From: Escherichia coli
Lineage (GTDB): Bacteria; Pseudomonadota; Gammaproteobacteria; Enterobacterales; Enterobacteriaceae
DNA length: 64,000 nucleotides
Strand: one strand, 5' to 3'
Assembly: GCF_030013205.1 (NCBI RefSeq)
Contig: NZ_CP122648.1
Numbering within the stretch: position 1 is the stretch's first letter; every line of letters begins with the position of its first letter. The notes beneath the pieces were generated by a model. That model was not told where the DNA came from and searched no databases. It worked only from the letters and a program-made list of their open reading frames with translations. A program made the translations under genes and the position numbers. Positions 1 to 18,902 of this stretch are shown here, piece after piece.

Positions 1-1083
1 TACGTTACCTCGAACGGACTTCATCTTAACGGCCACGCACTGGAATTGCGTACCTTCAACCTGCTGCACGTTATAGCTGCCGTATCCAGTGACATGCACT
101 GAGCCGCTAAAAGCGTCGCCAATCAGCATGCCATTTACCCACGAATACTGTAGCACCGTCAGGTCATCACGCCCCTGTTGAGGACCGAAATGCGCTCCTA
201 ATTTGAACTTCGCCCGGTGCGCAGTGAACATTTCCTCCCTGAGTGGAGTAAGAATACCGTACCGACCATTTCCGTTTTCCAGGCGAATCATGAATTTTCC
301 GATGTCGGTTTCTACCTGGGAATAACTGGACTCCGGGTAGCTAACGGCCAGACCTACGGTCGATGCTGAGTCAGCATCCTTCACGCATAACTGGGTTTCT
401 GTCCCAGCCGTATAAATTTTCACGCCATAGGGAACGGTTACGCACGCCGTTAGTGCGGAATCTCCTGTATGGTAGTTATCCATATCCAGAGAAACACCAT
501 TTGTAGGGCTCACCAGATATTTTCCTGCTGGCCAATAGAGTACCTTAGCTCCGCAATTGGACCAGCGGTTTAGGGCAAGAGTGTCATCTGCAATACCATC
601 TCCCTTTGCTCCGAAGTGGTAAGGGGTAAGGAGATAGGTGTTGTGCTGATGTTGAGTAATAGGTACAGAATCAGCATATGGCTGTTTAACAATAACAAGC
701 GCATCTCCTAGGCCAGTGTCAGGGTTTAATAATTGCTGTCGCAACTGATCCGGGTCATACTTCAGCACATTAGGAAAATAGAACTGCTGCACACCGTATG
801 CATCATAAACAGCCATCGAATGGCCTTGCACAGTTACGAACTTGGCAATCTGTCCGTTATATACCGGGTAACCAGCCGCATTAATGATGATTGGTTGCGA
901 AACAGGAACATGAGAACCGTCTTCGTTCTCTATATAAACCTGAATCTGGTTTTCAGGATTTACAGGGTCAGTGTCAATTTTACCGATATAAATTTTGCCA
1001 TTGGCTACGGCTTTAAAAGAACGCGCCATAGTGAAAAGTTGCGAAGGCATCGATACGATCACATTGGCTGTAATGTCTGTCAT
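1..1083 (-). CDS. Tailspike protein, partial (N-terminal 361 codons; gene runs off window start)
   Basis: ATG at 1083. N-terminus [59 protein letters not shown] matches the recalled head-binding domain of P22 gp9; the rest diverges. Confidence 0.8.
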
Positions 1084-1141
1084 TTAATTTGCTCCAGATA
1101 CAATGAATCGCCGCAGCGTGGCCACGGTGAATTTTGGGCAT

Positions 1142-1164
1142 AAAAAAACCCAGCCGAAGCTGGG
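1142..1164 (-). terminator. Intrinsic terminator between ant and tailspike
   Basis: Hairpin CCCAGC-CGAA-GCTGGG with a 7-nt U-tract on the minus strand. Confidence 0.55.
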
Positions 1165-1183
1165 TCGTTGCGTTGGTTATCTG

Positions 1184-2113
1184 TCAGTAGTTATGTACTG
1201 AAGGAGGTAATTCTTTATTCTTAAGTCTCATCCATGCAGAAAGATTCGTTGGTCCGCCTGGCTCATTGATATCAACATCTCGTGTGTGGTTGATTAAAAC
1301 GTCTCTCGCCATTCCGATAACATACGAGAATTCATGACCGTAGTCGTAGCATCTGCCGGAATAGTTCGATTGAATTTGTTTTAGCGCCGGATACAGTTCG
1401 CGGAATAATGCCTGTGAGCGGTTGGCATAATCCCATAACCATACAAGGCTGTTTGCTTCTTTTGCAGAAAGCTCGTTGGTTTTCTTCTCTTGTTTGCCAA
1501 TGAACTCACCTTCAAGTGGAACTCGAGCTGCAAGTGATAGTGCTTCGGTAAACTGCTCCTCACTGATTTCTTTGTACGAACATCCAAAATGGGATTTCAG
1601 TGACGACCACATGGTGATCATCGCCTTAGCCTGTTTTTCTTTTGGCAGAGACTGACCGCGACTCATGACGAGTTGTTTAATGGCTTCCTGCTGTTCAGTG
1701 GTGATTTTACCCGGCAACGCCTTTTTAGCTTTGCGTGGGTTAACTACATGGCCTTTAGTCCAGTATTCGTAGAGCACATCGTCACACTCTTCCTGATACT
1801 GGATTACCTTGTCGCGGATTTCAGGGCGTACTTTGTTAGGGCTAATGGTTTGCAGCCAACCTGCAAGTTTGCGAAGTGCCAAACAAATAATCTCACGGCG
1901 CTGTTCATCACCTGAAAGCTGCATTGTGATTTTCACAATGGAGGTTTTAAACCGCTGCTTCATTTTCGTAAACTGTGAAGCCCAATCCATACCCATACCT
2001 TCAACGATAGGTTTCATTGGGGTGTACGGCTCACCGTTGTGATTGACGACATAAAGCTCTGCGCCGTGGAATGGCACGTTGATAGTAGATACTGCTGTTG
2101 CTATACTTTTCAT
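1184..2113 (-). CDS. ant: Phage antirepressor (Ant-like)
   Basis: 309-aa ORF immediately downstream of the arc-like gene, in the position of P22 ant; N-terminus [47 protein letters not shown] resembles the AntA antirepressor family as recalled. Confidence 0.75.
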
Positions 2114-4056: not shown

Positions 4057-6321
4057 TTACTTCTGGTTATCATCACTGTTCATCCAGTACATGATGCCTA
4101 GCCTTGATATGGTTTTCTTATCTGATTCTGGAAGTGAGTTGTAAAACGAGCGCCAAGCAGAAGAGCGTCTTACAGTTGTATCAACGATGCTTTCTGGTGC
4201 TTGTTTTACTGCCAGCCTTGCTGCTTTCTGGAATTCTGGTGAGCTAATTAGCTTTTCTGCAGATTCAATTGATTCAGCGCCGCCCATCGCCCTGATTTTG
4301 CTGGCGACTTTTGCCCCAATTTCTGACCCAGCAACAGCACCTACTGCACTGAACGGTCCTGACACAGTTGAACCAACCGCAGTGCCAATGCGTTGGGCAT
4401 GGTTAGCAACAAATTCATTTGCCGCAGTGACGCGATTAAACCGTTTGACGAACTCGTTTAGTCTTCCTGTAGTTATCTCGTAAGATTTTGCGTCTTTGAT
4501 AGCCTTTGCGACCTTATATACATCGTTCAGACCTGACATAGTCTCTTTTGGTAAATGTCGGGCAAGATTGCGCATCTGCCCGTTTGCTAACATGTTTTGA
4601 TACCAGTCAGCAAACCCTGCAGGATTAAAATCAGCGCCACGTTTTCCGTTCGAAAGCATATCCCGAAGACCTGTTCCCAGTAGCTCGGTTCTTAGCTTCC
4701 TGGACGGCGTGTTTTGCATCAATTCACGAAATCCTTTGGCATCGCCTTTCGACATTGCCTGTAGTGCTGTAGTTGCTTTGCGAGAAACATCACCGTTCAG
4801 CGTTCTGCCAGTTAGATTAATCATTTGCTCTTCCATGCTTTTTCGCATCTGAACAAGCCTCTGAGCAACTTCAAAATCACGTAATGCATTTGTCTCTGAC
4901 AGCGCCGCCTTTTGATCATCGGCGAGCGAACCGTAAAGCCTCGATAAAGCAGCGCGATCAGCATCTTTATATGGTCCAGAATTCTTATGAAGTGCATCAC
5001 CAACAAGTCGTCGTTGCTTATTGAGATTTGCATAAGTTAATGCGCCGTTCTTGCCTGGATTAATTGCCCGAAAGACTCTCTTTTCAATAGGGTCAAGGTT
5101 TTTCATCCCGCCAAGATCTTCTGCCACCTGTTTGAGCATTGACCTTGTTGATGGCGCATCAATTTTTGCACCTGCAGGCATCGCCTTTTCAACATTGCGA
5201 TAAAGCTGGTCGCTTCGTTTCATCAGCGCAGACATTCTTCCATTGACCGTATCAATAAACTTGTCGCTCATACCAAGAGCATCTTTTGCACCGGAAACGC
5301 GATCAATTATCTCCCCCGCGCCCTGTGCTAGCTGCCTGATTGCTTCATTTTCCTGCACCTGTAGAGCAGAACCCGCACGGGACTTGATTGCTTGCTCAAC
5401 TGCCTTGTATTGCTCGTTCCCGGAAAAGTGTGAAGGGAGTAATGAATCAACATTAAGCCTTTCAGCAGACTCCAGAACTTCAGCCTGAGGATTGATATCT
5501 AGTTCATCAAGCGATGAAGCGAGATTTGGCCTTTTTTGTGCTGCTACTGTGCGAACGACTTCCTCTGGGTTCCTCGTCGCAGGAGTCATTGGTACACCTT
5601 GTGCTGCTCTTGCCTCTGCGGCATGAACCGCAGGATTTGTTGCCTCTGCGGCATCACCGGAGAATGGTGATGTTTCTGTTGGCGCAGTGGTCGCTCTCTG
5701 TGCAGATGTTTTATTGCCACTAATTATATTTGATGCACCACGAACACCACGGGTAACGCCATTTATCAGGCCATGCGTAGCAATGTTAAGTCCGGCATTA
5801 ATAGCGGCATTTTCGGCAAAATCACCCTCCTGATTTGCAGCATCAGCAAGAGAACCTGCAATCATGTTTCCTGCGGAACCGATGTCTCCTGCGAGCTTTG
5901 CTGGCGCTCCAGCAACTTTTGCCGCTGTGCCAATTGGCAGGAGATACCCACCAATTGTTTCACCGGCTTGCGCCCAAGGGTCTGTCGGTCGATCGACAGG
6001 GCGATAAACATCATCCAAAACCTTGGGGCCACCAAGCCCCTGGCTGATTGCATTAATCAGACTTGCGCCACCCTGCAATACGTCAAATGGTATGTTTACC
6101 AGACCACGACCAGCCTGTTCTGCAATTTGCCCTGCGCTTTGACCACCAGTGAGCCAGTCAGTAGCTTTTCCCACCAGAGATTGTTCTTCTGGCTGCGATT
6201 GGTTTTGAGTGGATTGATCACCAGAAGACAGCATCTGAGCAATGCGACGTGCTCCCTCAGTATCGCCGGCAGCATCAGCATTCCTTAACGCCGTCATCAA
6301 CTGTTCACGACTATAGGCCAT
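4057..6321 (-). CDS. DNA ejection/transfer protein (P22 gp16-like by synteny)
   Basis: 754-aa ORF directly downstream of the gp20-like gene; Gly/Ala-rich segments. Confidence 0.7.
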
Positions 6322-9688: not shown

Positions 9689-9838
9689 GTTACCAACATC
9701 AGTGCCCTGTGCGATAACGTAAAGCAGATACGACTGCGAGAAGATATTGCGTGGAAGGACTGATGTGTCGAGCCGTGTAGAGCATTGTTCGTGCCATTGT
9801 CTTCTCCCAATAAAAATGGGGCCGAAGCCCCACCAAAA

Positions 9839-17114: not shown

Positions 17115-17267
17115 TCAACGCAGCCCCTTACCGCGCGCCAGATGCTCAATATCAAGCATCAGCAATGAGATGTTTAATCTGGATTCACTCCAGAAGTGAT
17201 CACCACCCTGTCTACAGAGCCAGATGTGAAGGATGATGAGTAGAATTATCGCTATCATCGAAGGCAT
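17115..17267 (-). CDS. Possible small ORF (50 aa) downstream of Rz remnant
   Basis: Hand translation MPSMIAIILLIILHIWLCRQGGDHFWSESRLNISLLMLDIEHLARGKGLR with AGGA RBS; start overlaps the Rz stop. Could be spurious. Confidence 0.25.
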   Translation of the reverse strand: MPSMIAIILLIILHIWLCRQGGDHFWSESRLNISLLMLDIEHLARGKGLR

Positions 17268-17480
17268 TGCGTCCTGATGTACTCCTGCAGGTAGTTAACC
17301 TGCGCGGTTATCCTGTCGATTCCACTTCGGAGACGGTAATAATTGAGTTCAGCATCTGCTGTAAGTCTTGGGCTTTCTCCATCGCCCATGCCGCTGGCTC
17401 TGGTCGTTGACTTTGCACAGGTGGCGGCGACTTGCAGGCGCTTACGACCAGCAGAAACATCAGCACGGAGACTTTCGATA
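17255..17480 (-). pseudogene. Rz: Rz (i-spanin) remnant, C-terminal part only
   Basis: ESLRADVSAGRKRLQVAATCAKSTTRASGMGDGESPRLTADAELNYYRLRSGIDRITAQVNYLQEYIRTQCLR aligns with the recalled lambda Rz C-terminus. The upstream part of the ORF has no Rz-like TM/N-terminal region and overlaps xis antisense. Confidence 0.65.
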
Positions 17481-17499
17481 TCGAAGCAGAGGACATCAA
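17308..17499 (-). CDS. Rz1: Rz1-like o-spanin lipoprotein, embedded in Rz frame +1
   Basis: Signal peptide with lipobox (LLVVSAC) followed by a proline-rich segment KSPPPVQSQRPEPAAW; the true start may be an internal Met. Confidence 0.65.
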   Translation of the reverse strand: MMSSASISKVSVLMFLLVVSACKSPPPVQSQRPEPAAWAMEKAQDLQQMLNSIITVSEVESTG

Positions 17500-17587
17500 C
17501 GACTGCTATAACCACTGGATGATATGGGCGCAGATAGCGCATGCAGACGTAACAAATATTCGAATTGAAGAACTGAAAGAACACCAA

Positions 17588-17608
17588 ACCGCCTGATGGC
17601 GGTTTTTT
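17588..17608 (+). terminator. Terminator-like hairpin upstream of xis
   Basis: ACCGCC-TGAT-GGCGGT followed by TTTTTT. Confidence 0.4.
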
Positions 17609-17635
17609 CTTGCGTGTAATTGCGGAGACTTTGCG

Positions 17636-17854
17636 ATGTACTTGACACTTCAGGAGTGGAACGCACGCCAGCGGCGCCCAAGAAGCCTTGAAACAGTTCG
17701 TCGATGGGTACGCGAGTGCAGGATATTCCCTCCTCCGGTTAAGGATGGAAGAGAGTATCTGTTCCACGAATCAGCGGTAAAGGTTGACTTAAATCGACCA
17801 ATAACAGGTAGCCTTTTGAAGAGGATCGGAAATGGGAAGAAGGCGAAGTCATGA
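17636..17854 (+). CDS. xis: Excisionase, lambda Xis-type
   Basis: 72 aa, MYLTLQEWNARQRRPRSLETVRRWVRECRIFPPPVKDGREYLFHESAVKVDLNRPITGSLLKRIGNGKKAKS matches recalled lambda Xis; overlaps the int start. Confidence 0.93.
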   Translation: MYLTLQEWNARQRRPRSLETVRRWVRECRIFPPPVKDGREYLFHESAVKVDLNRPITGSLLKRIGNGKKAKS

Positions 17855-18902
17855 GCGCCGGGATTTACCCCCTAACCTTTATATAAGAAACAATGGATAT
17901 TACTGCTACAGGGACCCAAGGACGGGTAAAGAGTTTGGATTAGGCCGAGACAGGCGAATCGCAATCACTGAAGCTATACAGGCCAACATTGAGTTATTTT
18001 CAGGACACAAACACAAGCCTCTGACAGCGAGAATCAACAGTGATAATTCTGTTACGTTACATTCATGGCTTGATCGCTACGAAAAAATCCTCGCCAGCAG
18101 AGGAATCAAGCAGAAGACACTCATAAATTACATGAGCAAAATTAAAGCAATAAGGAGGGGGCTACCTGATGTTCCACTTGAAGACATCACCACAAAAGAA
18201 ATTGCGGCAATGCTCAATGGATACATAGACGAGGGCAAGGCGGCGTCAGCCAAGTTAATCAGATCAACACTGAGCGATGCATTCCGAGAGGCAATAGCTG
18301 AAGGCCATATAACAATAAACCCGGTCGCTGCCACTCGCGCTGCAAAATCAGAGGTAAGGAGATCAAGACTTACGGCTGACGAATACCTGAAAATTTATCA
18401 AGCAGCAGAATCATCACCATGTTGGCTCAGACTTGCAATGGAACTGGCTGTTGTTACCGGGCAGCGAGTTGGTGATTTATGCGAAATGAAGTGGTCTGAT
18501 ATCGTAGATGGATATCTTTATGTCGAGCAAAGCAAAACAGGTGTAAAAATTGCCATCCCTACAACATTGCATGTTGATGCTCTCGGGATATCAATGAAGG
18601 AAACACTTGATAAATGCAAAGAGATTCTTGGCGGAGAAACCATAATTGCATCTACTCGTCGTGAACCGCTTTCATCCGGCACAGTATCAAGGTATTTTAT
18701 GCGCGCACGAAAAGCATCAGGTCTTTCCTTCGAAGGGGATCCGCCCACCTTTCACGAGTTGCGCAGTTTGTCTGCAAGACTCTATGAGAAGCAGATAAGC
18801 GATAAGTTTGCTCAACATCTTCTCGGGCATAAGTCGGACACCATGGCATCACAGTATCGTGACGACAGAGGCAGGGAGTGGGACAAAATTGAAATCAAAT
18901 AA
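17832..18902 (+). CDS. int: Tyrosine integrase, lambda Int-type
   Basis: 356 aa, near-identical to recalled lambda Int from MGRRRSHERRDLPPNLYIRNNGYYCYRDPRTGKEFGLGRDRRIA to HLLGHKSDTMASQYRDDRGREWDKIEIK. Confidence 0.95.
   Translation: MGRRRSHERRDLPPNLYIRNNGYYCYRDPRTGKEFGLGRDRRIAITEAIQANIELFSGHKHKPLTARINSDNSVTLHSWLDRYEKILASRGIKQKTLINYMSKIKAIRRGLPDVPLEDITTKEIAAMLNGYIDEGKAASAKLIRSTLSDAFREAIAEGHITINPVAATRAAKSEVRRSRLTADEYLKIYQAAESSPCWLRLAMELAVVTGQRVGDLCEMKWSDIVDGYLYVEQSKTGVKIAIPTTLHVDALGISMKETLDKCKEILGGETIIASTRREPLSSGTVSRYFMRARKASGLSFEGDPPTFHELRSLSARLYEKQISDKFAQHLLGHKSDTMASQYRDDRGREWDKIEIK

Follow-up and report, generated by a model that had tools for sequence, protein, structure and literature searches.

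The first 1083 nucleotides of a 64,000-nucleotide stretch of Escherichia coli DNA (hereafter the window) hold part of a phage tailspike gene that begins like that of P22 and continues otherwise, which raises the question of how such a protein was assembled and which surface polysaccharide it recognizes. At 100% identity, the window matches E. coli ETEC4079 (NZ_CP122643.1 from position 3446694), a pig faeces isolate from Belgium of serogroup O139. The gene lies on the minus strand at window 1..1083 (ATG at 1083, by translation), where its 5' portion supplies codons 1–361 of 690 before the open reading frame (ORF) leaves the window at the left edge, with a further 990 nucleotides outside the window in the source genome; the body is thus incomplete within the window, as the initial annotation had said. 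In ETEC4079 the full gene is intact (2073 nucleotides, 690 amino acids) and annotated as ‘phage head-binding domain-containing protein / phage tailspike protein’; it also occurs in full in ETEC4068, and NCBI already lists the protein as an unnamed ‘phage tailspike protein’ inside a 244-member cluster. With a probability of roughly 0.8, the protein is a tailspike made of two independently inherited modules, a P22-type anchor and a different receptor-binding body.

Residues 1–113 (window 745..1083, minus strand) form the head-binding, virion-docking domain, with a YDPDQ hinge at its end. The Pfam Head_binding family (PF09008) matched at an E-value (E) of 1.1e-66 (222.6 bits, where the cutoff is 24), placing residues 1–113 on profile positions 1–113, and the domain matched PDB chains of P22 and Sf6 at E 1e-45 to 1e-75. 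Identity was 76% to P22 gp9 (86/113) and 90% to Sf6 gp14 (103/114), while at the DNA level the region was 88–95% identical to the coliphages HZ41 (about 95%), N7, CUS-3, and HK620. The initial annotation was therefore right to call the domain P22-type and overstated the case in describing it as almost residue for residue that of P22 gp9 (76%); by sequence it is nearer to the Sf6, CUS-3, and HK620-type coliphages than to P22, with an E. coli/Shigella flavour.

The LKYDPDQ hinge is present as described, and the sequence leaves P22 thereafter, with P22 homology ending at about codon 115. No end-to-end alignment with P22 gp9 was obtained, as the full-length P22 tailspike chains (2xc1_A and 8tvr_A) align to residues 1–114 only. 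DNA similarity to P22-like phages ends at gene nucleotides 339–355 in all 31 similar phage records, and other E. coli P22-like prophages lose similarity to the window at 730–746. In a 30-nucleotide sliding comparison, identity to HZ41 drops from 97% to about 47% past nucleotides 330–360 (break at ~340–360), and identity to an epsilon15-type spike gene climbs to 97–100% from nucleotide ~395–420, such that the body module common to both genes starts at nucleotide ~395, near a GDALVxVKQP motif. Based on the sliding identity and the BLAST end-points (nucleotides 339–355 and 394), the mosaic junction or linker was assigned to codons 114–132 (window 688..744, minus strand).

The epsilon15-type gene encodes a 789-amino-acid protein in which a different N-terminus (MTVSTEVDHNEYTGNG...) is fused to the same body at 99% nucleotide identity. 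This N-terminus shares 75–84% identity over ~220 amino acids with the spike anchors of TL-2011b, epsilon15, PAS61, and phiV10, and the gene sits in prophages with a holin-holin-GH19 (glycoside hydrolase family 19) endolysin layout. It was found in 13 complete E. coli genomes, including ETEC4079, where this second copy belongs to another prophage outside the window (NZ_CP122643.1 1426322-1428691, equal to L004 5311-7680). The two ETEC4079 bodies differ at 13 of 1677 nucleotides, with six amino-acid changes. The same body on a P22-type and an epsilon15/phiV10-type anchor in one genome demonstrates the modularity directly and, with the sharp boundary, bears out the modular swap that had been proposed. 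More distant bodies (80%, 65%, and 43% identity) are carried by other anchors, one of them Pfam PF18668. It is textbook knowledge that phages exchange tailspike bodies while keeping conserved anchors, and the modular finding accordingly leaves the general understanding unchanged.

The body itself comprises 577 residues, of which the window holds the N-terminal part (residues 133–361, window 1..687, minus strand), consisting of a neck, a PF12708-like cap (residues 156–193, window 505-618, minus strand, a sub-threshold match), and the first beta-helix coils. The body was absent from a phage collection of 50,697 genomes searched with megablast and tblastn, where only the head-binding region, or the cap at 34–43% identity, was matched. 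Beyond residue 114, PDB and Pfam searches of the tailspike protein returned no match to the P22 body: the Pfam scan placed only PF09008 above threshold, with PF12708 below it and no P22 tail body model matched, and the matches from PDB sequence and profile searches fell within either the head-binding domain or the cap at the N-terminus, with no catalytic alignment. A word-indexed search of 5.8 billion proteins recovered 15 relatives, and HMMER, run exhaustively over 1.84 billion representative proteins, recovered 317 matches at E ≤ 1e-3, only 19 of which had E ≤ 1e-30; many of the weak matches span just the first ~80 body residues, a cap/neck motif that numerous depolymerases have.

A confident AlphaFold2 model of the body (monomer, from a 59-sequence alignment) had a mean predicted local distance difference test score of 93.1 and a predicted TM-score of 0.89. 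It shows the beta-helix that the initial annotation had anticipated, right-handed and parallel at ~158–560, followed by a separate C-terminal beta-sandwich at ~575–685 (full-length numbering), so that the body is predicted to share the ‘beta-helix plus C-terminal domain’ trait of P22-like tailspikes. The best Foldseek TM-scores were to the Sf6 tailspike (0.44–0.47), the best viral predicted structures reached a TM-score of 0.59 at most (15–17% identity), and no close solved relative was found in the PDB or with Foldseek. The family of this body is rare, has no solved or characterised member, and shows no sequence relationship to the bodies of P22, HK620, and CUS-3. Across the 59 homologues, E383, P408, G409, and H416 are invariant, and D323, Q346, E391, N418, R429, and Y440 are conserved in 80–93% (47–55/59); the central residues D323, E383, E391, H416, R429, and Y440 form a candidate active site. 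The C-terminal beta-sandwich (~577–690, outside the window) also has stand-alone metagenome homologues of 130–230 amino acids at 35–40% identity (P0067, P0070, P0080, P0081, P0090, and P0091) and a weak profile match (E 0.025) to the cellulase carbohydrate-binding module 1ulo.

The prophage that carries the gene is defective. Its gene order (terminase, portal, scaffold, coat, needle, ejection proteins, two Arc-family genes, ant, tailspike, prophage end) is the P22-like order of the complete prophage in E. coli CFSAN018748, in which the tailspike closes the virion operon after the immI genes (mnt/arc/ant). The element is inserted between ybhB (bio side) and ybhC (gal side), the lambda site, and lies beside a lambda-type Int and Xis, the Int presumably differing from lambda Int at a few positions only; a lambda-like att core (CTTTTTATACTAACTTGAGCG) lies ~370 bp past the spike stop codon (L002 ~4615-4640, outside the window). 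Compared to the CFSAN018748 prophage (L006 8826-10905), a clean 2,079-bp deletion with its junction at window about 9778-9780 has removed a small ORF, gp4, gp10, and the first ~40 nucleotides of the tail-needle gene, after which the coat gene abuts a 316-amino-acid ‘tail needle knob’ ORF. The whole early and lysis region is gone as well, with Rz/Rz1 fragments abutting the excisionase and integrase (window ~17255-18902; L002 23115-24902). Because gp4, gp10, and the early region have been lost, this copy of the tailspike is a stranded relic that cannot be mounted on a virion of its own prophage.

The 1083-nucleotide query matches three places in ETEC4079, namely the tailspike gene, presumably the epsilon15-type copy, and a third place. 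The third may belong to an additional P22-like prophage that has its own tailspike with a head-binding domain, in which case a co-resident phage might conceivably make use of the stranded spike. At the same locus in the sister strain ETEC4068 (L001 1-2694), an IS2 element has cut short the gene upstream of the gp16-like one and taken the place of all remaining prophage sequence, which indicates ongoing, strain-specific decay of the element. At the position of gp16, an ejection protein, the window holds an intact 754-amino-acid ORF (4057-6321, minus strand) without a Pfam match, of which PGAP called only an internal piece, a partial ‘lytic transglycosylase domain’ pseudogene. P0007, a 550-amino-acid protein from other genomes, fuses a gp16-like N-terminus, largely identical to the 754-amino-acid protein except for the first ~50 residues, to the last ~190 tailspike residues and is a deletion derivative.

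In P22-like virions the head-binding domain plugs the spike into the tail hub of gp4 and gp10. The beta-helix would then bind and cleave the host surface polysaccharide so that the virion reaches the outer membrane. By analogy, the body is most likely an O-antigen depolymerase, because every characterised spike of the same architecture binds or cleaves a surface polysaccharide. Its chemistry is probably that of a hydrolase (endoglycosidase), with an endorhamnosidase as the first guess, and its most likely target is the O139 O-antigen, at about even odds. What the domains are, the modelled fold, the mosaic boundaries, the sharing of the body module, its distribution, and the decay of the prophage are shown by the data; that the spike forms trimers, that it acts as an enzyme, how it cleaves, and that O139 is its target are inferred. 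A receptor specificity unlike that of P22, suggested by the initial annotation, is the natural reading of the swapped body and is in keeping with its enrichment in O139 strains.

O139:H1 E. coli cause oedema disease and post-weaning diarrhoea in pigs. Among 5,426 complete E. coli genomes, 19 were scored as O139 based on the presence of the wzy-wzx segment, and ETEC4079 carries O139-family wzx and wzy. The P22-type form of the spike occurred in 15/19 O139 genomes and the epsilon15-type form in 12/19, with both forms in 10/19 and at least one in 17/19, compared to three of the 5,407 non-O139 genomes carrying the body. The O139 repeat unit is a heptasaccharide of four alpha-L-rhamnose residues, alpha-N-acetylglucosamine, beta-glucose, and an alpha-galactose-derived residue whose oxidation is a step of the synthetic route (PMC4906484; PMC7685785). 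All four O-clusters found among carriers encode rfbBDAC, the dTDP-rhamnose pathway. An NAD-dependent epimerase gene sits between ugd and wzzB in ETEC4079 (L005 27460-28464, outside the window), a position at which it does not occur in CFSAN018748 and EC5654; it is possibly a UDP-glucuronic acid 4-epimerase linked to a uronic acid of the O139 antigen.

Several findings weigh against an O139-directed depolymerase. Three carriers lie outside O139: the pig strain PEC41 (O132), the human strain EC5654 (O4, its rfbA frameshifted), and the pig strain CFSAN018748, which has an unnamed O-cluster of rhamnose/N-acetylmannosamine type and whose P22-like prophage, located at sbcB-dacD, looks complete. Strong as the enrichment is, it is confounded by descent, since the O139 carriers belong for the most part to a single clone that is associated with pigs and has alleles in common. 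No catalytic residue could be mapped, as the profile comparison with Sf6 covers residues ~146–341, outside the Sf6 catalytic region. Further, in three Japanese pig O139 genomes (NZ_AP027440.1, NZ_AP027436.1, and NZ_AP027432.1) the spike gene has a one-nucleotide indel (a tailspike match of 1082 instead of 1083 nucleotides) and is annotated as two coding sequences; these copies look frameshifted or pseudogenised, which suggests relaxed selection on the stranded gene. Strict exclusivity of the body to O139 was rejected on the strength of the O132, O4, and unnamed-serogroup carriers.

The same carriers, one of them with an apparently complete prophage, lend themselves to a different account, in which the receptor is another glycan (for example, colanic acid, the pig clone's capsule or K antigen, or a rhamnose motif shared by several O-types) and the link to O139 would come solely from old prophages passed down within the clone. 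Since most of the O139 carriers have chromosomal alleles in common, they stand for few independent events, and the PHROG family that matched best bears the label ‘colanic acid degradation’. That label was rejected for the body, since the match is confined to query residues 1–226, mostly the head-binding domain and cap. Against a non-O139 receptor, two unrelated podovirus types with the same body both lysogenised the O139 clone, and P22-like spikes typically target the O or K antigens of the lysogen (PMC3303846). CFSAN018748 has the rfbB, rfbD, wca, and his alleles of the O139 clone and differs from rfbA to hisA, and may be an O-switched relative of that clone; with rfbB and rfbD identical and the sequence differing from rfbA onward, the recombination break-points in an O139-clone background make an O-switch after lysogeny plausible. 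A receptor other than the O139 O-antigen is rather doubtful.

The remaining alternatives concern the chemistry. The body would be a polysaccharide lyase (beta-eliminase) if it cut the O139 O-antigen at a uronic-acid residue, with conserved His416 serving as base, Tyr440 as acid, and Arg429 as charge neutraliser, a proposal that we hold to be unlikely. The AlgE4 mannuronan C-5 epimerase A-module, the K5 lyase KflA, and the Klebsiella K1 lyases, all members of the pectin-lyase-like beta-helix superfamily, share 9–15% identity with the body, with sequence similarity in the cap only and catalytic motifs that could not be aligned. A still bolder version, to which slightly less credence is given, is that the invariant His and conserved Tyr/Arg mark the body as the founder of an unclassified family of O-antigen lyases cutting the O139 polysaccharide at a uronic acid, and that the module, being common to P22-type and epsilon15-type prophages in one genome, would be a portable O139-targeting reagent for pig oedema-disease E. 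coli. Least probable by some distance is an adhesin-type spike that binds its glycan without cleavage, or one that alters it chemically, such as by deacetylation. The Pfam scan detected neither an esterase nor an SGNH domain, and strict invariance like that of E383 and H416 in 59 homologues spanning 18–80% identity is commoner in active sites than in binding grooves that vary with specificity. A hydrolase directed at the O139 O-antigen remains the preferred reading.

The surroundings of the gene agree with its place in a P22-like genome. A Shine-Dalgarno-like GGAG (window 1092..1095, minus strand) was read from the sequence 8 nucleotides 5' of the ATG, and a consensus scan placed a terminator-like GC hairpin and T-run between ant and the tailspike gene (1147..1166, minus strand; 8-bp stem, five GC pairs, then TTTTTAT, a pattern match only). 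Directly upstream is the antirepressor gene ant (1184..2113, minus strand; by annotation and by Pfam P22_AR_N at E 8e-45 and P22_AR_C at E 5e-30), and beyond it two genes with Pfam Arc matches (E 2e-5 and 3e-10), one at 2180-2353 on the minus strand and the other at 2431-2682 on the plus strand. Judged by these family matches, ant and the two Arc-family genes correspond to the P22 immI arrangement that precedes gene 9. A literature search by strain names returned no match.

Overall, the protein is a new member of a well-known type of spike and closely parallels the tailspike of a remnant P22-like prophage in E. coli O104:H4, in which the first 113 amino acids are 79% identical to P22 and a novel body was experimentally shown to be O104-specific (Scholl et al. 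2012, PMC3303846). In both, a P22-type head-binding domain is joined at ~113–118 to a body with little database similarity, and a pathogenic E. coli carries the gene in a prophage that has suffered deletions; the two differ in body family and in serogroup, and the O-acetylase gene that adjoins the spike at the O104 locus has no counterpart beside the present gene. As for O104:H4 (PMC3303846), a body that tracks O139 could be used to retarget pyocins or phages, or could serve as a typing reagent, a practical value that is modest yet real.

The epsilon15, phiV10, and TL-2011b phages differ from the present spike in having a virion-attachment module other than the P22 type, and in epsilon15 and phiV10 as isolated phages the body is an unrelated one, tblastn matches ending at residue ~220–233. 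P22 gp9, an endorhamnosidase, shares the head-binding domain, the YDPDQ hinge, the place after mnt/arc/ant, and the plan of a beta-helix plus C-terminal domain, but has no detectable sequence similarity past residue 114. The closest solved protein overall is Sf6 gp14, also an endorhamnosidase (PDB 2vbk, 4urr, and 7sg7), and the O-units of both hosts are rich in rhamnose. The likeness to Sf6 beyond the anchor is weak but significant (phmmer of residues 1–249, E 8e-75; of a ΔN construct, 119–249, E 1.5e-6), and hhalign gave a probability of 95.7% over body residues 33–228 (full-length 146–341), through the neck and first coils. That alignment ends at Sf6 residue 346, short of the catalytic coils (the Glu366/Asp399 region), and the second phmmer domain was not significant (i-Evalue 83). 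Neither the C-terminal domain nor the latter half of the helix could be aligned, and body identity was about 12–15% overall.
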